Source: Escherichia coli (GTDB lineage Bacteria > Pseudomonadota > Gammaproteobacteria > Enterobacterales > Enterobacteriaceae). From it: 64,000 nt of DNA. Positions 12,464 through 52,118 of this stretch are shown here, in pieces. The stretch lies in assembly GCF_003018115.1 (NCBI RefSeq), contig NZ_CP027457.1. One strand, written 5' to 3'. The first letter of the stretch is position 1; each line of letters begins with the position of its first letter. The translations under genes were made by a program, and so were the position numbers. The notes under the pieces were generated by a model. The model searched no databases and had not been told where the DNA came from. It saw nothing but the letters and a program-made list of their open reading frames with translations.

Positions 12464-13393
12464 ATGAAACCACTGCTGGATGTGTTGATGATCCTCGATG
12501 CCTTAGAAAAAGAAGGCAGTTTTGCGGCGGCGTCGGCCAAACTCTATAAGACGCCGTCCGCTCTGAGTTACACCGTTCACAAGCTGGAAAGCGACCTTAA
12601 TATTCAATTGCTTGATCGTAGCGGTCACCGCGCTAAATTCACCCGTACCGGAAAAATGTTATTAGAGAAAGGGCGGGAAGTTCTGCATACCGTGCGAGAA
12701 CTGGAAAAGCAGGCGATCAAACTGCATGAAGGCTGGGAAAACGAGCTGGTGATTGGCGTGGACGACACGTTTCCTTTTTCTCTGCTTGCGCCACTGATTG
12801 AAGCTTTTTATCAACATCATAGCGTGACGCGCCTGAAGTTTATCAATGGCGTACTCGGTGGTTCCTGGGATGCCCTGACTCAGGGGCGAGCGGATATTAT
12901 TGTTGGCGCGATGCATGAGCCACCATCTTCCAGTGAGTTTGGTTTCTCGCGGTTGGGCGATCTGGAACAAGTCTTTGCGGTCGCGCCTCATCATCCGCTA
13001 GCCCAGGAAGAAGAGCCGTTAAACCGTCGTATCATTAAGCGATATCGGGCGATTGTGGTGGGAGACACTGCGCAGGCAGGCGCTTCTACGGCCTCACAAC
13101 TTCTCGACGAACAAGAAGCCATTACCGTTTTCGATTTTAAAACCAAGCTGGAGCTGCAAATTAGCGGCCTCGGCTGCGGCTATTTACCCCGTTATCTGGC
13201 GCAACGTTTTCTCGATAGTGGCGCGTTAATCGAGAAGAAAGTGGTCGCCCAAACTCTCTTTGAACCCGTCTGGATTGGCTGGAATGAACAGACCGCAGGG
13301 CTTGCCAGCGGCTGGTGGCGGGATGAAATTTTAGCAAATAGTGCGATCGCCGGTGTTTATGCAAAATCTGATGACGGAAAATCAGCCATTTAA
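12464..13393 (+). CDS. yeeY: LysR-family transcriptional regulator
   Basis: ORF 12443..13393; start chosen at MKPLLDVLMILDALEKEGSF... (HTH N-terminus), about 309 aa. Confidence 0.85.
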   Translation: MKPLLDVLMILDALEKEGSFAAASAKLYKTPSALSYTVHKLESDLNIQLLDRSGHRAKFTRTGKMLLEKGREVLHTVRELEKQAIKLHEGWENELVIGVDDTFPFSLLAPLIEAFYQHHSVTRLKFINGVLGGSWDALTQGRADIIVGAMHEPPSSSEFGFSRLGDLEQVFAVAPHHPLAQEEEPLNRRIIKRYRAIVVGDTAQAGASTASQLLDEQEAITVFDFKTKLELQISGLGCGYLPRYLAQRFLDSGALIEKKVVAQTLFEPVWIGWNEQTAGLASGWWRDEILANSAIAGVYAKSDDGKSAI

Positions 13394-34267: not shown

Positions 34268-34581
34268 AATGATCCTGTTTGTACTGTCTTTTTATAATTA
34301 GTATGGAAAAGGTAACTCACATTGCTGTCGATCTATAAACGAACCTTATGAGACTACCTCGACAGAGCGCATCTGCAAATGATTTTATGGCTGATGAGCA
34401 GCAACATGAAAAATTCGCTGGAAGATGAAAGCGCAGGAGTTGCTGGTGTTGTTTAAGGATTAAGCAGAGGCCCCACAGGTTCGAGATATGAAACATAAAA
34501 GTCCGCATATGCACAAAATTGCACCCTGATGATTCTGATAGACTGCATTGCATTATAACCAGTAGGGAGGCGAGGTTAGTT

Positions 34582-35634
34582 ATGTTTTTAGCATCATTGT
34601 TGAGACGTATTGTATTTAGTTACTACGATTATAAAGCTTATAATTTCAATATTGAAAAAACAGAGTTTGTTGTTATCCATATTCCCGATCAGATTGGCGA
34701 TGCTATGGCCATCTTTCCTGTTATTCGGGGGCTTGAATTGCATAAAATTAAGCATCTTTTAATTGTAACGTCGACAATTAATTTAGAAGTCTTTAATGCG
34801 CTCAAACTTGAACAGACTAAATTAACATTAGTCACAATGACTATGCAGGATCACGCAACATTAAAAGAAATAAAAGATTTAGCGAAGAACATAACACAGC
34901 AATACGGTACGCCGGATCTTTGTATAGAGGCGATGCGTAAAAAGAACCTGAAAACGATGTTATTTATCAGTCAGTTGAAAGCAAAAACGAATTTTCAGGT
35001 TGTTGGTTTAACCATGAAGTGCTATTCCCCTTTGTGTAAGAACGCGTCCCGGATGGATCAGAATCTCCGGGCTCCTGTACCCATGACATGGGCATTTATG
35101 ATGCGGGAGGCGGGTTTTCCAGCAGTCAGGCCAATATATGAATTGCCACTAAGTGAGGATGTACTCGATGAGGTGCGCGAGGAAATGCGATCGTTAGGAG
35201 CTTACATTGCGCTCAATTTAGAAGGTAGCTCGCAGGAACGTACATTTTCACTATCGATTGCAGAAAATCTAATAGAAAAAATTCAAAGTGAAACAGATAT
35301 ACCAATAGTGATCGTTCATGGACCAAAAGGGGAAGGTAAAGCCAGGGCATTAGTGGATTGTTATAATAATGTCTACCGTTTATCCTTATCACCCTCGATT
35401 AAACGTTCAGCAGCAATCATAAAAGATGCTTATATCGCAATAACTCCTGACACCTCAATATTACATATGGCAAGTGCCTATAATACCCCCGTTGTTGCAA
35501 TTTATGCTGATTACAAAACGCGATGGCCCGCAATGGCCGATGTTTCGGAGTCAGTCGTCGTTGGGCAAAAAATTGACAATATAAGTCTGGATGAATTCGC
35601 AAAGGCATTAAAAAGTGTTTTGGCGAGAATATGA
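34582..35634 (+). CDS. yeeL: Glycosyltransferase family 9 (heptosyltransferase-like) protein, apparently intact
   Basis: ORF 34519..35634; start placed at ATG 34582, which follows a GGGAGG RBS (about 350 aa). C-terminal GT9-type motif (ITPDTSILHMASAYNTPVVAIYADY). AT-rich codon usage. Confidence 0.75.
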   Translation: MFLASLLRRIVFSYYDYKAYNFNIEKTEFVVIHIPDQIGDAMAIFPVIRGLELHKIKHLLIVTSTINLEVFNALKLEQTKLTLVTMTMQDHATLKEIKDLAKNITQQYGTPDLCIEAMRKKNLKTMLFISQLKAKTNFQVVGLTMKCYSPLCKNASRMDQNLRAPVPMTWAFMMREAGFPAVRPIYELPLSEDVLDEVREEMRSLGAYIALNLEGSSQERTFSLSIAENLIEKIQSETDIPIVIVHGPKGEGKARALVDCYNNVYRLSLSPSIKRSAAIIKDAYIAITPDTSILHMASAYNTPVVAIYADYKTRWPAMADVSESVVVGQKIDNISLDEFAKALKSVLARI

Positions 35635-35895
35635 GGCAGTACTTATGAATAGTAATGCCGATCTGTTATGAACGGTGGTGTCATCAATACTCTGAGGCTG
35701 GTCAATCATCACAGAAAACCAGCCTTTAGATCAAAGCAGTACTCACCGAAAATGATCATAGTCACATCGAACGCGATTCTGGCGGTGCAGCATTTTTATT
35801 TATTCATTTTCTGTGAGAGAAGGGCAAGCTCTATAGAGGGAATGTAAAAAAGAGTGCCCCGAATGGAGCACTCTTTAAGAAATTATAACGGAAAA

Positions 35896-43878
<7,983 letters not shown>

Positions 43879-44191
43879 GCTTACCTTCCCTGAACGAGCT
43901 AACATAAATGCGCCCTTTCTAGCACAGCGAAAAAATGTAAATCCTGATAGCAATATGATTGAAAATTAATAACTTTTCGTTAGGCAGTTTTGGGGGTGAG
44001 TTGCAAGAGGGGAGACTACTGAATAACTCAAGTTTTATAATCGAGGGGAAAATGGTGATGGCGTTCATAGCAAAACGCCCTCAACCATAAAGGTCGAGGG
44101 CGCTTAAGATGTTAAAAACCCGCTATCCGTTAAAAAACAATGTTCAACTAAGGTCAGTGACATTGCGCTAAAAAAGCGAATTTTTAGAATT

Positions 44192-44267
44192 TGGCTCCTC
44201 TGACTGGACTCGAACCAGTGACATACGGATTAACAGTCCGCCGTTCTACCGACTGAACTACAGAGGA
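44192..44267 (-). tRNA. asnT: tRNA-Asn (GUU)
   Basis: 76-nt canonical tRNA-Asn; 5'-flank conserved with the copy at 25579-25654. Confidence 0.95.
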
Positions 44268-44367
44268 ATCGTGTGAACGGGGCGCATATTACTTAGCGGT
44301 ACCTTGTCTGTCAACACTAAATTTCATAAGTCATTTCAATTGGTTAATTAATCTGCAAAGTTGTTAA

Positions 44368-45165
44368 TTAATGAACATTCGTCGCCGAAAACGAGTCTGT
44401 ATCATTAGCGTGATGCAGTCTCTGCAAAGGATCTTGTTGATAAAATTGGCAGAAACGTTGCCACAATGAAGGGAAACGAGGAGCAAAAAGTTCTGGGGCG
44501 CTAAAGAAATATTCAGAAAGTACGGCAAAACATTCAGCAGGATCACTGGCAGCATAAGCATCAATGCTCGCCGCATTCTCGCCAACCAATTCGATTTCTT
44601 CCTGAATGTTGTTCATTGCAGCATGAAGATCGTGTTCCCAGCCAGCAACCTCACGCAACGGAATAAAGGGAACACCGCTGGCGCGATCGCCGTTACGGGT
44701 GTCCAGCTTATGAGCGACTTCATGAATAATCAGGTTAAAACCAGAAGCATCAAAAGAATCTTGTATATCCAACCAGTTCAAAACGATAGGCCCTTGCTGC
44801 CAGCTCTGACCTGACTGAACAATACGTTGGTTATGCACCAGACCGATATCGTCTTCCCATTCATCATCGACCACAAATGGCGCAGGATAAATTAAGACTT
44901 CATGAAAACCATCCAGCCATTCCAGTCCTAACTCCAGAACGGGTAGGCAAAATAGAAGTGCTATCCGGCAGCTTCTTAATGAATCCAGTTCAAAGCCCTG
45001 TAAAGGAACAAGCCGCTTTTGCTGTAAAAAACGTTCGGCAAGAGTGACTAATTTGCTTTGTTCCTGTTCCGTCAGACACGTTAAAAGGGGGATCGATAGT
45101 GCTTCCTGCCAGGGAAGGGCAGTTTGATGTGCTGATTCTTGTACTTTCCAGGGCCACTTAATCAT
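44368..45165 (-). CDS. mtfA: Mlc titration factor A (zinc metallopeptidase-like)
   Basis: ORF 44368..45204; start at [28 protein letters not shown]... (265 aa); HEVAH motif present. Confidence 0.9.
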
Positions 45166-45258
45166 CGTTTTGCTCGCAAACTCGTCACTTGAACAAAATT
45201 GCACGGACAGGGACTGTTAAAATGCCAAATTTCCTGGCATCATGGCAACCATCTGAAC

Positions 45259-45348
45259 GGAGAGATGCCGGAGCGGCTGAACGGACCGGTCTCGAAAACC
45301 GGAGTAGGGGCAACTCTACCGGGGGTTCAAATCCCCCTCTCTCCGCCA
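45259..45348 (+). tRNA. serU: tRNA-Ser (CGA)
   Basis: 90-nt GGAGAGATGCCGGAGCGGCTGAACGGACCGGTCTCGAAAACCGG...CTCTCCGCCA with long variable arm, anticodon CGA. Confidence 0.93.
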
Positions 45349-45917
45349 CTTTATCAATGACTTATCTCCCGACTTCCCGCCTTGCTTTTCCTAAACAGAA
45401 CAATCGTAGAATATTCTTGAAGGGTTAGATCGTCACTGTTTTCTGTTCGATACTGTGACATTCAGCACTTGATTCGCTATGGATCTGACAGGAAGCTTTC
45501 GAGCGAAAATGTGCAGTTATTCAGTCGTTTTCTTATCGCTCACCATTCTTCTTTTAGACATTCATCCTATGAAACTGCCGCAAAGTTGGTGGTGGGAACT
45601 GAAGTTGCGTAGAGAAGGGGTCAATAATTGAGTCAAAAAAGGAACGCGGCCGTCAGATTAAAGCCGCGGGACAAAGTCCATAATTTCCAAGAGTTGTTGA
45701 ATTTCCCAGCTTTTTTGAAAGCCTTTGTATCATACTAACAAGTAAAAAAGGTTTAAATACCAAAATTAACCTGTATTTTTGATAAGTCTTACCATTGTAC
45801 GATTTACACAGTTTCTGCTCCTCCTTGTTGATAGTGGAAAGGGTGCATTGTGCACTTGCGTAAACATTTATGACGCGTTGATGTCCATGGTTCACATTTC
45901 CTTGTCAGGGGATCGAC

Positions 45918-46448
45918 TTATTTGCGGCGAGGCATCATTCGTAACAGAGTATTATCTTTCTGAATGTAGTGATGAAAGAGTGCTGCGCCAGCGTGAGCTG
46001 CGATTAAAAAGTAGCCTATATTTGCCCAGGTTTCGTGAATATTTTTTATCAGTGCTTTAATTTCGCTGTTTGGGGTAACAAAGGGAGACACATTGAAACC
46101 AAGGAAACTCCACGATTTTCCACTGTAAGCCATTAAAGCAATCCCCAGCAGAGGAAGCGCAAGGAAGGTTATATAAAGCATGATGTGCATTAGCGAAGCC
46201 GCTTTCATTTGCCAGGCAGGTGGCGGTGGCACAATAGAAGGATCACTATAACGGTGTTTTATAATCAGGCGTGAAAACATTAACACCCAAACGAATATAC
46301 CCGCATTGTAATGTGTTTCTCGCATCAGCAGATAAGTACTACTACCTTTAGGAAACCAGCCACGGAGTTCCATCGCGGCATAGGTTATTGCAACGAAAAG
46401 CAGCGTTATCCAATGTAAATAAATTTGAGTTTTTGAGAATCGGTTCAT
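45918..46448 (-). CDS. yodB: Cytochrome b561-family membrane protein
   Basis: ORF 45918..46478; start at MNRFSKTQIYLHWITLL... (176 aa), 4 TM with conserved His. Confidence 0.88.
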   Translation of the reverse strand: MNRFSKTQIYLHWITLLFVAITYAAMELRGWFPKGSSTYLLMRETHYNAGIFVWVLMFSRLIIKHRYSDPSIVPPPPAWQMKAASLMHIMLYITFLALPLLGIALMAYSGKSWSFLGFNVSPFVTPNSEIKALIKNIHETWANIGYFLIAAHAGAALFHHYIQKDNTLLRMMPRRK

Positions 46449-46790
46449 TTTTGTAGCTCCTGTAATTTTCACAGTCAAGCTATCCCACGAACCTTAAAAA
46501 TTCCTTATACAGATGTGGTTTTAAGAATTTGTTATTTAAAAAATTGATAGTGCACATTGTAACCAGCCAATATAAGCAATGTCGTGAGCACAGGTATCTT
46601 TCTCTGTTGGCCGTATTGTGTATGGAATCCGTTATTGGTTAACTCAATGCGGGTTAGCTTATTAATATACAGACACGTCATAGTGATGAGCGTGTCTGTA
46701 GCTAGCTTGCGTTCAGTGGCGTTTGTGGATGGACCAGTGGCAGTTATGATGACTTACTAAAGCGGCATCGAGGCGTTATCATGAGAATAC

Positions 46791-47441
46791 TCAATGAGAC
46801 ATCATTTCCTCGACCACTTCTTCGCTACTCAACTGATATGGATAATACGTTGGCCAGTTTTCCATTTCATTTAATAAAGATTGCTGTGAATCATTACCCA
46901 TAAAAATGTGAAAATGAGATGATTTTCGTGGTGCAATTATATGATCGCTAAATTGTATATATTTAGGGGCTTTGCTTTCAGGATCTTTACATTCGAATAA
47001 GTAACGAACGCCTTTCTTGCCTGATTTATAGGTGAGTATTTTGTATCCATCGTAATCATATTTACAGGATGTTGTTTCATTATTTCTATGGAATTCAACA
47101 ATGCCGTCCTCAATGCCAATCATCTCGATATCTGTTGCATAACCTTTGTGATAATAATCTTTAATTTCAGCAAATGTTTTAGTTTTATCTGCATCCGCTT
47201 TCTTCTGAAAGACGGGGTCAAGTTTGCCACTTTGCAGTAAAGGATAAACGGATTGCCAGACTCCATCCCAGTCACTGAGCGTTCGGTTTTGTACATTGGC
47301 ATCATCAAAAACACCATTAGCAGCTTTTTGTTCGACCTCTGTTAAGGGGTTGCCGTGTGAGTGATGACCATGCGAAAAGGCAGGAGCGCTAACAATAAAG
47401 ACACCTAAAGCAACAGCCAGTTTATGAAGACGAATCGCCAA
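46791..47441 (-). CDS. zinT: Periplasmic zinc/cadmium-binding protein
   Basis: 216-aa ORF with signal peptide and His-rich N-terminus (HGHHSHG). Confidence 0.92.
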
Positions 47442-47476
47442 AACAGTTTCCTCCAGAGTTAATGTATATGATGTGT

Positions 47477-47500
47477 AATGTTATATTGTAACATATAACA
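47477..47500. promoter_or_regulatory. Probable Zur box in the zinT promoter
   Basis: AT-rich palindrome tgttatat-N6-atataaca directly upstream of zinT. Confidence 0.65.
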
Positions 47501-47625
47501 AAATGCAACAACTCTTAGGAAACGAGAGCATGGCTTTCTCAGTTCTACTTATCTATCTTATTGAAATAAAATAAATTATTTTTGTGATTTGAGGTTGATG
47601 ACAAACGAAACATAACCTGATGTGA

Positions 47626-47666
47626 GCTGCGTAGGCCGGATAGGGCGCTCGCGCCACATCCGGCAG
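47626..47666. repeat. REP (repetitive extragenic palindromic) element
   Basis: gcgtaggccggatagggcgctcgcgccacatccggca, the typical REP consensus, between zinT and msrQ. Confidence 0.8.
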
Positions 47667-47697
47667 GGATAACGCGTACTTTGTCGGCAATATGAAG

Positions 47698-48333
47698 TTA
47701 TACAGATAATTTGTTGTGAACCTGCTTGCGTAACCGGTTAAAAAGGGAACGCAACTTCTTATACCGTAAGGCTAAAAGCAGTACAGCCAGCCCAGCGTAG
47801 ATGAGCGGCTGCGGTGAAATAATCTTCACTGACCACAGATAATGTATTGGGGACAGGATCGCGACAAGATAGACGAAATTATGCAACTGTTGCCAGTGCT
47901 TGCCGAGTTTTCGCTGCATCGCCTGGGTTGAAGTAAACGCTAAAGCAAGCAAAATAACCCAGCTGATAATTCCTAACGTTAAATAAGGCCGGGTAATTAA
48001 CTCCTTGCCTAATAACGCCAGATTATTCACGCCCAGCTCCAGCAATGCGTAACTGGTTAAATGCAGTGTCGCCCAGGCAAAGCACCATAAGCCTAACAGG
48101 CGGCGAGTGCGTATCAATAACGGCTGTTTTGCGTAGCGTGCCAGAGGTGTGATTAACAAGGTCGCCAGCAAAAATTTCAGTGCAGTGCGACCAGTAAAAT
48201 GCTGAATATCTTTCACCGGATCGGCACCCAGTCCACCGTGATTGATTGCCCAGACCAGCCAGAGAAACGGCAACAATCCGGCAAGATGCAGGCAAACTTT
48301 CAGCCATGTCACCTGTTTTGCTGTCAGACGCAT
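47698..48333 (-). CDS. msrQ: Methionine sulfoxide reductase heme-binding subunit
   Basis: 211-aa polytopic membrane [26 protein letters not shown]... Confidence 0.92.
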
Positions 48334-49344
<1,011 letters not shown>

Positions 49345-49446
49345 TCACACTTTTTTGTCGTTAGCCAGCAAGAGCCGTTTACTGCTAATCTGTCAGGGAG
49401 TGTCCTCCCTAACAGTAGCAGAGATCTGCTTTTACATATTTATGCA

Positions 49447-49860
49447 TTAACTGCCACGATAGGTTGAATACCCATATTGGCTAAGTAATAAAGGCACATG
49501 ATAATGCTCGTTCACTTTATTAATATGAAATTCAACGGGGATCTCAGGGAAGAAACTTTCAAGATTTTGTTTCTTGAAATAGTCCCCGGTTTTAAATACG
49601 ACACGGTAATCGCCCGTAGTTGCAGTTTGCTCGGGCCACAGTGCCTTAATTCGTCCATCCTTATCTGTTTTGGCGGTATTAAGTTGTAACCAGCCGTTAT
49701 CCGCTTTCTTTTCAAGAGTGACTGTCACGTCGGCAGCGGGTTTTCCTGTTTGCTGGTTCAAAATGTGCACGCTAAGAATGTTTTGTTGTGCAGCATAGAC
49801 CAAAGAAGGTAATGAAAATGCAGCCGTTACTACGGAGAGTACTAAATAACGCTTTAACAT
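49447..49860 (-). CDS. hiuH: 5-hydroxyisourate hydrolase (transthyretin-like periplasmic protein)
   Basis: 137-aa ORF with signal peptide and C-terminal YRGS motif. Confidence 0.9.
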
Positions 49861-49992
49861 GTTTATATCCTTGTCATGTGAATGAGTTTTGAGGATAGCG
49901 AAAAAGCGTCCAGGGTAACCTTACAGCAGCATTACAATTTTGTAATGAACCAGGCTGTTTCTATAACATATGATTTATGGCATATTATTTTC

Positions 49993-50664
49993 ATGAAGAT
50001 TTTACTTATTGAAGATAATCAAAGGACCCAGGAGTGGGTAACGCAGGGGCTTTCCGAAGCGGGTTATGTCATCGATGCCGTTTCTGATGGCAGAGATGGG
50101 CTTTATCTTGCGCTGAAGGATGATTATGCATTGATCATTCTGGATATTATGCTTCCGGGTATGGATGGCTGGCAGATCTTACAAACGTTAAGAACGGCAA
50201 AGCAAACCCCTGTTATTTGCCTTACTGCAAGGGATTCTGTCGATGACAGAGTCAGAGGGCTGGACAGTGGAGCAAATGATTATCTGGTAAAACCTTTTTC
50301 ATTTTCTGAGTTGCTGGCAAGGGTTCGGGCACAATTAAGGCAACATCACGCTTTGAATTCAACATTAGAAATCAGCGGCTTAAGAATGGACTCTGTTAGT
50401 CAAAGTGTGAGCAGGGACAATATCAGTATTACACTGACGCGCAAGGAGTTTCAGTTACTTTGGCTACTGGCCTCCAGAGCTGGCGAAATTATACCCAGAA
50501 CGGTTATTGCGAGTGAAATTTGGGGAATCAACTTTGATAGTGATACCAATACGGTGGACGTCGCCATTCGCAGGCTCCGCGCAAAAGTTGATGATCCTTT
50601 TCCTGAAAAGCTAATCGCCACAATCCGGGGGATGGGCTATTCATTCGTAGCGGTAAAAAAATAA
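49993..50664 (+). CDS. hprR: Two-component response regulator (OmpR family)
   Basis: ORF 49882..50664; start at MKILLIEDNQRTQEW... (ATG 49993, 223 aa). Confidence 0.9.
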   Translation: MKILLIEDNQRTQEWVTQGLSEAGYVIDAVSDGRDGLYLALKDDYALIILDIMLPGMDGWQILQTLRTAKQTPVICLTARDSVDDRVRGLDSGANDYLVKPFSFSELLARVRAQLRQHHALNSTLEISGLRMDSVSQSVSRDNISITLTRKEFQLLWLLASRAGEIIPRTVIASEIWGINFDSDTNTVDVAIRRLRAKVDDPFPEKLIATIRGMGYSFVAVKK

Positions 50665-52022
50665 TGAAAAGATTATCTATAACCGTCCGTTTAACCTTGC
50701 TTTTTATATTGCTGCTGTCTGTTGCTGGCGCTGGAATTGTATGGACTCTCTATAATGGCCTGGCAAATGAGTTGAAATGGCGCGATGATACAACACTCAT
50801 TAACCGGACAGCACAGATCAAGCAGTTGTTAATTGATGGGGTAAATCCAGATACGTTACCTGTGTACTTTAACCGGATGATGGATGTTAGTCAGGATATC
50901 TTGATCATTCATGGTGATAGCATCAATAAAATTGTTAACCGGACAAATGTCAGTGATGGCATGTTAAATAACATACCTGCTAGTGAGACAATCAGCGCAG
51001 CTGGCATTTACAGAAGCATTATTAATGATACAGAGATAGATGCTTTACGAATTAATATTGATGAAGTTTCGCCATCATTAACGGTTACTGTGGCTAAATT
51101 GGCTTCAGCCAGACATAACATGCTTGAACAGTATAAAATCAATAGCATTATAATTTGCATTGTCGCCATTATACTGTGCTCAGTATTAAGTCCGCTGTTA
51201 ATCCGGACGGGGTTACGAGAGATCAAAAAGTTGAGTGGTGTAACGGAAGCGCTGAATTATAACGATAGCCGAGAGCCTGTTGAGGTTAGCGCATTACCGA
51301 GAGAACTAAAACCTCTTGGGCAGGCGTTGAATAAAATGCATCATGCTTTAGTCAAAGATTTTGAGCGTCTAAGTCAGTTTGCTGACGATCTCGCTCATGA
51401 ACTTAGAACGCCAATTAATGCATTACTGGGTCAGAATCAGGTTACGCTCAGTCAAACCAGAAGTATCGCTGAATATCAAAAAACAATTGCCGGAAACATT
51501 GAAGAGCTGGAAAATATTTCGCGGTTAACAGAGAACATACTGTTTCTTGCCAGGGCAGATAAAAACAATGTTTTGGTGAAACTGGACTCGCTTTCTCTCA
51601 ATAAGGAAGTCGAAAATTTGTTGGACTATCTTGAATACCTTTCAGACGAGAAAGAGATTTGCTTTAAGGTCGAGTGCAATCAGCAAATCTTTGCGGATAA
51701 AATTTTACTACAACGAATGTTATCGAATCTTATTGTTAACGCTATTCGATATTCGCCAGAAAAATCGCGTATTCATATAACCAGTTTTCTTGATACCAAC
51801 AGCTATCTTAATATTGATATCGCCAGCCCTGGAACGAAAATTAATGAGCCTGAAAAACTCTTCCGTAGATTTTGGCGGGGAGATAATTCGCGTCATTCCG
51901 TAGGTCAGGGACTAGGCCTTTCTTTAGTCAAAGCGATTGCCGAATTACATGGGGGAAGTGCTACGTATCACTATCTCAATAAGCATAATGTGTTCCGGAT
52001 TACGTTGCCGCAAAGAAATTAA
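50664..52022 (+). CDS. hprS: Two-component sensor histidine kinase
   Basis: 452-aa ORF with two TM segments, H-box (LAHELRTP) and ATPase G-boxes; start overlaps the hprR stop. Confidence 0.9.
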   Translation: MKRLSITVRLTLLFILLLSVAGAGIVWTLYNGLANELKWRDDTTLINRTAQIKQLLIDGVNPDTLPVYFNRMMDVSQDILIIHGDSINKIVNRTNVSDGMLNNIPASETISAAGIYRSIINDTEIDALRINIDEVSPSLTVTVAKLASARHNMLEQYKINSIIICIVAIILCSVLSPLLIRTGLREIKKLSGVTEALNYNDSREPVEVSALPRELKPLGQALNKMHHALVKDFERLSQFADDLAHELRTPINALLGQNQVTLSQTRSIAEYQKTIAGNIEELENISRLTENILFLARADKNNVLVKLDSLSLNKEVENLLDYLEYLSDEKEICFKVECNQQIFADKILLQRMLSNLIVNAIRYSPEKSRIHITSFLDTNSYLNIDIASPGTKINEPEKLFRRFWRGDNSRHSVGQGLGLSLVKAIAELHGGSATYHYLNKHNVFRITLPQRN

Positions 52023-52118
52023 CATAGGCTTCAGTACGCCCGTTAAAAAACGCAGCCACGTCGTGAGTACTAACGCGGCTGCGATTGATTATGCGCTTAC
52101 ATTCAAACGTAACAGGGA

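Follow-up and report, generated by a model that had tools for sequence, protein, structure and literature searches.

The 569-bp interval between the tRNA gene serU and yodB in Escherichia coli joins an ordinary convergent-terminator architecture to an unannotated, probably phage-derived gene for an Hfq-associated small RNA of putative function, a reading to which we assign a probability of roughly 0.6. The predicted product is a minus-strand, Hfq-binding RNA of ~90 nt transcribed from its own promoter, the promoter being the part of this picture that is held with less confidence. Three independent supports bear on the small RNA candidate: a transcript 3′ end mapped in vivo, chimeric fragments recovered with Hfq, and selective conservation of the corresponding DNA.

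The interval lies in a window of 64,000 nucleotides of E. coli DNA (contig NZ_CP027457.1) with the local gene order yeeJ-asnT-mtfA-serU-yodB-zinT-msrQP. ARAGORN and Rfam both place the tRNA gene directly before the spacer, which spans 45349-45917, and yodB is a minus-strand ORF whose stop codon is at 45918-45920. The long unannotated gap recorded in a preliminary description of this DNA is therefore real. It corresponds to K-12 2042899-2043467 (NC_000913.3; the K-12 coordinate is 2,088,816 minus the window coordinate) and is unannotated there and in every RefSeq E. coli record inspected. As serU and yodB are convergent, with both 3′ ends facing the spacer, the interval consists of two 3′ flanks and cannot hold the promoter of either gene, which disposes of one function that had been proposed for it. 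The G+C content is low (35-44%), and the spacer is a mosaic of segments with differing histories (Table 1).

Table 1. Features of the serU-yodB spacer and its serU border, in window coordinates.
Feature	Position	Strand	Remarks
serU tRNA-Ser(CGA)	45259..45348	+	nt 29-90 (45287-45348) form the block duplicated at attR of serU-integrated prophages
Start of serU 3′ trailer, candidate Rho loading site	45349..45400	+	tract rich in C and poor in G (17 C, 5 G)
Rho-dependent termination zone of serU read-through	45349..45600	+	published peak K-12 2043225 (-), window 45591
Hypervariable middle segment	45479..45634		25 variable sites in 12 genomes; unalignable with E. albertii; holds the 50-aa ORF
Intrinsic terminator	45635..45668	-	stem, 10-nt loop and tail; in vivo 3′ end at 45635
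Small hairpin SL2, GGAC-UUU-GUCC	45669..45679	-	directly upstream of the terminator
Predicted ~90-nt small RNA, 5′ end inferred	45635..45724	-	possible 5′ hairpin, linker, SL2, terminator
Sigma70-like promoter	45729..45757	-	TTTAAA, 17 nt, TATGAT
Whole ~160-bp module common to the lambdoid-prophage family	45635..45795	-	homology to phage copies
yodB-proximal flank	45796..45917		part of the ~1-kb yodB cassette 45796-46790

Transcription entering the spacer from serU is terminated by Rho. No intrinsic terminator was predicted in the plus-strand trailer of the tRNA gene, the first 52 nt of which have a C/G ratio of 3.4. A Rho termination region was mapped previously at K-12 2043225 (-), equivalent to window position 45591 (+), where coverage dropped from 7705 to 24 without treatment and from 9053 to 1099 with bicyclomycin, yielding a Rho score of 38.97 (p = 2e-241; Adams et al., 2021, PMC7815308, Supplementary file 2). 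The signal is among the strongest in the available portion of the published table. The coverage data with bicyclomycin thus reveal that Rho stops read-through from the tRNA promoter within ~240 nt, and the locus displays both the bicyclomycin-sensitive read-through and the C-rich, G-poor region that characterize a Rho-dependent terminator. It resembles Rho-dependent termination after other tRNA genes in this bicyclomycin-sensitive stop after a C-rich trailer, and there is nothing unusual about it at serU. In the proposed mechanism, transcripts from the strong serU promoter would pass the tRNA into the trailer, which would load Rho so that the transcript ends before 45600 and is kept from running antisense into yodB and zinT. 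Transcripts from the opposite strand would end at the intrinsic terminator, 44 nt from 45591.

The minus strand of the spacer is predicted to carry a self-contained module of ~160 bp that would comprise a sigma70-type promoter, an RNA of ~90 nt and an intrinsic terminator. The terminator stem, CGCGGCU/GGCCGCG, pairs 45668-45662 with 45651-45645 (7 bp, GC-rich) and is followed by the tail UUCCUUUUUU at 45644-45635. An 'orphan' Term-seq 3′ end at K-12 2043181 (+) corresponds to window position 45635 and was recorded in two of the three condition sheets with 2,241 and 1,864 reads (Adams et al., 2021, PMC7815308); judging by the order of conditions in the caption, these two sheets represent LB at OD600 2.0 and M63. 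The mapped end and the final U of the predicted terminator are the same nucleotide. Thus, an intrinsic terminator with a U-rich tail at 45635 is used in vivo. Preceding it in the predicted RNA are the SL2 hairpin (45679-45669), a single-stranded linker GGGAAAUUCAACAACUCUUGGAAAUUAU and a possible 5′ hairpin, GGCUUU-CAAA-AAAGCU. The fold of the whole RNA is not unusually stable (z = -1.39). The 5′ end probably lies at about 45722-45724, as judged from a sigma70-like promoter in which TTTAAA (45757-45752) and TATGAT (45734-45729) follow A/T-rich DNA. This promoter is a consensus match only, with two such sites in 1.5 kb compared to 3.0 expected by chance. The Cappable-seq supplement, which is possibly incomplete, contains no entry in the range. 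Searches of 44000-47500 with Rfam 15 at E ≤ 1 returned no match besides the tRNA and a sub-threshold sX4 hit overlapping the tRNA. In strain PC-NDM34, an IS1 copy is inserted between the -35 and -10 elements (L097 1622-2400; window ~45748), which constitutes a natural knock-out of the promoter.

Two further 3′ ends are of interest in the vicinity. One, listed by Adams et al. (2021), is internal to mtfA, at K-12 2043721 (+) or window ~45095 (-), about 70 nt into the ORF, and adjoins a hairpin CTGCCCTTCCCTGGCAG at 45106-45122; mtfA transcription may terminate prematurely at this point. The other is an orphan Term-seq end at K-12 2044735 (+), window ~44081 (-), which follows a GC-rich hairpin and T-run downstream of asnT and probably marks the asnT terminator.

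Association of the RNA with Hfq is evident from a re-analysis (Bar et al., 2021, Table S1, PMC8175672) of the Hfq RIL-seq data of Melamed et al. (2016), in which the spacer appears as the node 'yodB.serU.IGR'. The node was represented by 39 chimeric fragments with a single partner in exponential phase and by 33 fragments with two partners in stationary phase. It was always second in the chimera, a position in which intergenic RNAs are regarded as putative sRNAs (Melamed et al., 2016), and its U-tract length was given as 6. The RIL-seq counts are low, as are the sRNA classifier scores of 0.010 and 0.046 (PMC8175672). As a U-tract of six fits the minus-strand terminator, the node is assigned to that strand by inference. 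An RNA from the spacer is therefore physically associated with Hfq, with the minus strand as its presumed origin. The partner statistics of the node in exponential phase (15 interactions, SIC 0.094324) are the same as those in the ompF CDS row and for the partner of MicF. These equal values suggest that ompF is the exponential-phase partner, and it is the only partner that can be read from the RIL-seq table. The RIL-seq tables for EPEC, a strain without yodB, contain no node for the spacer, and the Hfq CLASH tables contain no entry. A 10-bp match CUCUUGGAAA between the linker and ompF around +133 has an energy within the background, and both long-duplex and windowed energy scans for ompF pairing performed no better than shuffles or background. 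The RNA is probably of lambdoid-phage ancestry, became fixed in E. coli, and would now act in trans via Hfq with ompF as a putative partner.

Conservation within the spacer is not uniform. Positions 1-447 have a match in 5,421 of 5,426 complete E. coli genomes, and the full 569 bp in only 3,064; the designation of the interval as core genome is thus accurate for its larger part and not for its yodB end. Within a set of 12 E. coli genomes, 45349-45478 contains three variable sites. The adjoining 156 bp (45479-45634) are hypervariable, and species-wide this segment is at least 99% identical in only 1,688 genomes and 90-95% identical in 2,077. By contrast, 45635-45772 was found in 5,417 of the 5,426 genomes, is at least 99% identical in 4,995 (92%) and is never below 95%; the 12 genomes differ here at four positions, all singletons. 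The sigma70-like promoter is invariant in the 12 genomes bar one 1-nt insertion and one IS1 insertion, and strains that lack yodB carry an identical module, the 100 bp preceding the hairpin included.

Outside E. coli, parts of the spacer are retained in E. albertii only. Positions 1-130 are 84% and positions 398-447 are 86% identical in that species, which lacks 112 bp comprising the RNA body, the terminator and the -10 hexamer. Any function of the RNA would consequently be specific to E. coli. The gap lies between two copies of AAAAAAGG, an 8-bp direct repeat at 45636-45643 and 45743-45750 that flanks the 112 bp, a pattern which would fit either a slippage deletion in E. albertii or the footprint of a gain or insertion in E. 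coli. The mtfA-serU pair is conserved across Enterobacteriaceae, and the sequence 3′ of serU is different in every genus. In cryptic Escherichia clades serU is followed by shiA-amn, and the segment 45349-52116 is absent from the locus. These clades (L008, L010 and partly L009) also differ from window 34533-52116 by inversion of asnT-mtfA-serU and absence of yeeJ. The 6.8-kb block missing from their locus (L008, L010) extends from the spacer to approximately hprS; in E. coli and E. albertii it flanks serU on the 3′ side in the manner of an island. The E. coli serU trailer resembles the common type over its first ~16 nt, and the Kluyvera intermedia trailer has a likeness at the same offset (+37 to +66) with a score that is not significant. 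The proposition that the E. coli trailer replaced an ancestral one was softened, as many apparently ancestral trailers of other genera resemble attL arms with CTTGG(T/A)ATA repeats. Repeats of the form CTTGG(A/T)ATAT follow serU at attL of the O157:H7 strain TR01 (L101 ~12700-12835) and at many Citrobacter and Salmonella loci (e.g., L048, L074). They look like arm-type integrase sites, and many seemingly native trailers of other genera may be attL arms.

The module has relatives in lambdoid phages. A sensitive BLAST search retrieved collinear copies at 84% identity in two phage records, one of which is an LT-IIb prophage integrated at serU, and both copies are located between Q plus tRNA genes and holin gene S. 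A pattern scan of IMG/VR with the 3′ motif identified 76 contigs, about 10 of which are prophage calls that include the chromosomal copy, and provided about 65 phage-type units in some 20 sequence variants. The units share the promoter geometry of the chromosomal copy (TTTAAA, 17 nt, TAGTAT or TAATAT) followed by a 5′ hairpin (SL1), a U-rich linker ACUUAUUAUUCUUCAU, the GGAC-UUU-GUCC hairpin and the terminator. They are antisense to the late operon, with the start of holin gene S located divergently ~185-260 nt upstream and Q convergently ~1 kb downstream. Homology between phage and chromosome is restricted to 45635-45681 and 45733-45791, with nothing beyond the module; the conserved 3′ module of the chromosomal copy shares 87-93% identity with its phage counterparts. 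The chromosomal 5′ hairpin occupies the position of phage SL1 but differs in sequence and does not align with it.

RNAalifold independently predicted three hairpins across the phage family. Compensatory double changes were observed at four pairs, namely SL1 columns 20-36 and 21-35 (CG to UA), and the two inner terminator stem pairs in columns 75-88 and 76-87 (UA to CG and CG to UA). Pairing was maintained in 96.5% of cells compared to 39-56% with slid partners, and the observed value was reached in 0 of 500 shuffles, figures that are to be read with the relatedness of the family sequences in mind. As the search pattern prescribed SL2 and the 5′ arm of the terminator, their invariance in all family members carries no weight. 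No Rfam family matches the phage units. Weak, sub-threshold STnc100-like Rfam hits were noted on the late strand beside them (L088 3722-3918, L087 1471-1664). A text search of the literature with the unit sequence found no paper. The phage family apparently is undescribed in the searchable literature, and the RNA is already present in public data without a name. As the family is diverse in phages and the chromosomal copy is single and invariant, the sequences favor transfer from phage to chromosome. In the most elaborate form of this proposal, the chromosomal module would be a domesticated copy of a class of lambdoid-phage antisense RNAs that face the late transcript just upstream of holin gene S and that, in phages, would damp leaky or premature expression of lysis genes. 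With its new 5′ hairpin and linker, the chromosomal copy might regulate host mRNAs such as ompF via Hfq, or, when phages carrying the unit enter the cell, pair through its 3′ module with their late transcripts and so act as an RNA brake on lysis. We view this functional scheme as improbable in its entirety.

The 3′ side of serU is a real prophage integration site, in agreement with the preliminary description, which had pointed to this side of a tRNA gene as a typical integration position. The SerU-LTIIb prophage record has a partial serU (nt 29-90) directly before the spacer that marks attR. In O157:H7 strain TR01 only 8 bp separate serU from the end of an integrase gene, and the espJ/tccP prophage abuts the spacer at its other end; in another strain a prophage and IS3 replace spacer positions 1-460. 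An Stx1d prophage at 'serU-...-yodB' also has been published (PMC9729726). The site displays the characteristics of tRNA attachment sites, with an integrase gene abutting serU at attL and no unusual feature. It resembles the anticodon-loop class in particular in that the duplicated block runs from tRNA nt 29 in the anticodon stem to the 3′ end. No integrase remnant was found in the spacer, where tblastn with three integrases gave chance hits only, and the tRNA-like appearance of 45889-45906, which matches the serU T-arm at 13 of 18 positions, was attributed to chance. At asnT, 1 kb from serU, strain FUJ80154 carries the yersiniabactin island (ybtS and integrase; L003 1-1682) in place of yeeJ.

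The lambda-like phages ev099, mEp332 and PhiR70_1 contain serU nt 29-90 together with spacer positions 1-278 at 96-97% identity. Interpretation of this segment as an attP that rebuilds serU and a terminator was rejected: Int is lambda-like and the lambda attP core GCTTTTTTATACTAA adjoins the integrase gene. In addition, the segment carries 116 bp from a serU prophage's right end. Taken with the lambda-type Int and attP, this identifies it as a captured attR junction with host flank that moved from host to phage, and the first 278 bp of the spacer are host DNA relative to these phages. In ev099 the junction occupies L085 3823-4278 in the b region, with the attP core at L085:6324 (mEp332 is L086). 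The junction in phages of this type is followed by an AraC-family gene and IS fragments, and the alleles of the three phages nest within the allelic diversity of E. coli.

At the opposite border, the last 122 bp of the spacer fall within the yodB cassette, which 3,064 of the 5,426 complete E. coli genomes possess and which is absent from ~43% (B2-type and others) and from E. albertii. In genomes without yodB, an unrelated stretch of ~222 bp separates the module from the zinT stop codon (L003 3448-3669; L011 4215-4534). Their organization looks ancestral from the sequence comparison, and the last 122 bp of the spacer presumably arrived with the cassette. This flank contains a strong Shine-Dalgarno-like sequence AAGGAGGAG at 45806-45823 (-) that is followed 10 nt later by a GTG-TAA start-stop.

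Other explanations of the minus-strand element were considered. It could be merely the terminator of yodB, which would then have a 283-nt 3′ UTR, or of zinT read-through, with the Hfq-bound RNA as a 3′ UTR fragment or decay product devoid of its own promoter or function. There is no convincing terminator between the yodB stop codon and 45668, the 3′ end was recorded in the second and third sheets, read here as LB at OD600 2.0 and M63, where zinT and yodB may be more highly expressed, and the low sRNA classifier scores and the missing node in the yodB-less EPEC strain are in keeping with this explanation. However, strains without yodB, in which a separate hairpin follows zinT ~90 nt past the stop codon, possess an identical module, conservation extends beyond the hairpin across the promoter-like region, and the phage relatives stand alone, sharing the promoter geometry and preceded by no gene on that strand. 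A terminator of yodB or zinT alone is possible but unlikely. We consider it highly improbable that past prophage traffic at serU left the entire spacer as an inert scar, conserved through recent common descent or hitch-hiking and with transcript ends that are mere by-products. The busy attachment site, the low G+C content and the synteny 3′ of serU that varies in every genus and in the cryptic Escherichia clades are compatible with such a scar, but drift alone does not explain the sharp contrast in diversity between adjoining segments in the same genomes. Moreover, the Rho signal is among the strongest in that part of the table which was accessible, and some terminator is needed between the tRNA promoter and the converging genes.

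Coding potential in the conserved segment is barely credible as the explanation. A 26-aa ORF (ATG at 45733, -) and a 50-aa ORF (45479-45631, +) do exist, and the latter has a hydrophobic core. Nevertheless, the 50-aa ORF, which is the longest on the plus strand, accumulates mostly non-synonymous changes and is interrupted by stop codons in L094 and in phage-borne copies, on which basis it was rejected as a small protein gene. The 26-aa ORF lacks a Shine-Dalgarno sequence, has its start codon within the -10 hexamer and is not retained by the phage relatives, whose central part is replaced; it is unlikely to be expressed as a protein. The current K-12 record annotates other small proteins, such as the 46-aa YlcG, but nothing here. 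The initial impression that the interval holds only short, unconvincing ORFs was borne out, and its suggestion of a small protein was not. Among the functions that it had listed, a small RNA is the one favored by the 3′ end, the Hfq node, the conservation and the phage family. It had also proposed that poor conservation and transcriptional silence would argue against a functional element. Instead, part of the spacer is extremely conserved within E. coli, and published data place transcript ends or termination signals on each of its two strands.

The candidate small RNA resembles several known Hfq-dependent RNAs encoded in the late region of lambdoid prophages, namely PasA, PasC and PasD of EPEC, StxS, AgvB/AsxR and DicF, in that it is short, with its own promoter (predicted here) and an intrinsic terminator with a U tail; further likenesses to the Pas group and similar prophage sRNAs are its presence on Hfq and its second position in RIL-seq chimeras. 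The pasA, pasC and pasD1 genes are reported to lie between Q and the holin/lysozyme genes, as do the phage relatives described here (bioRxiv 10.64898/2026.05.13.724894; PMC8550237). BLAST with 7-nt words across 2 kb around pasA, pasC and pasD1 of E2348/69 detected no similarity at E ≤ 0.01. The Pas sRNAs are reported to be absent from K-12 and most E. coli genomes, whereas 99.8% of genomes have the serU-yodB copy, which lies on the chromosome and not within a prophage. Candidates derived from 3′ UTRs or orphan 3′ ends in K-12, such as PspH and MicL, are comparable in combining an intergenic RIL-seq node with a Term-seq 3′ end downstream of a coding gene, and an internal promoter is possible in that class too. 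The module differs from them in being older than, and independent of, yodB, which is missing in ~43% of strains.

IpeX presents a further parallel. It is a 3′ UTR RNA of the DLP12/PA-2 porin gene nmpC/lc that inhibits OmpC/OmpF synthesis, and was reported by Castillo-Keller et al. (2006) to be of lambdoid origin, encoded antisense to late transcription in the stretch from Q to the lysis genes, with a link to porin expression. The likeness resides in ompF as the only partner that the RIL-seq table implies for the serU-yodB RNA. Unlike IpeX, no porin gene precedes the latter, and its predicted pairing with ompF does not exceed the background. Comparison with the K-12 quuD-nmpC-essD region of DLP12, which includes IpeX, yielded no similarity, only chance-level matches of 13-17 nt.

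Even for K-12, the best-annotated of bacteria, the record shows nothing in this interval. Every part of the spacer now has an assignment, as the Rho stop of the tRNA transcript, an intrinsic terminator used in vivo, the junction of the yodB cassette, or the small RNA candidate. The attachment site and the Rho stop are ordinary, and if the RNA is not the product of a gene the interval still illustrates clearly the insulation of a strong tRNA promoter from the genes that converge on it. If it is a gene, the RNA would be a species-wide, phage-derived addition to the Hfq network of E. coli, and would suggest that lambdoid prophages, the elements that carry toxin and effector genes, recurrently encode an antisense RNA in their late-gene leader.
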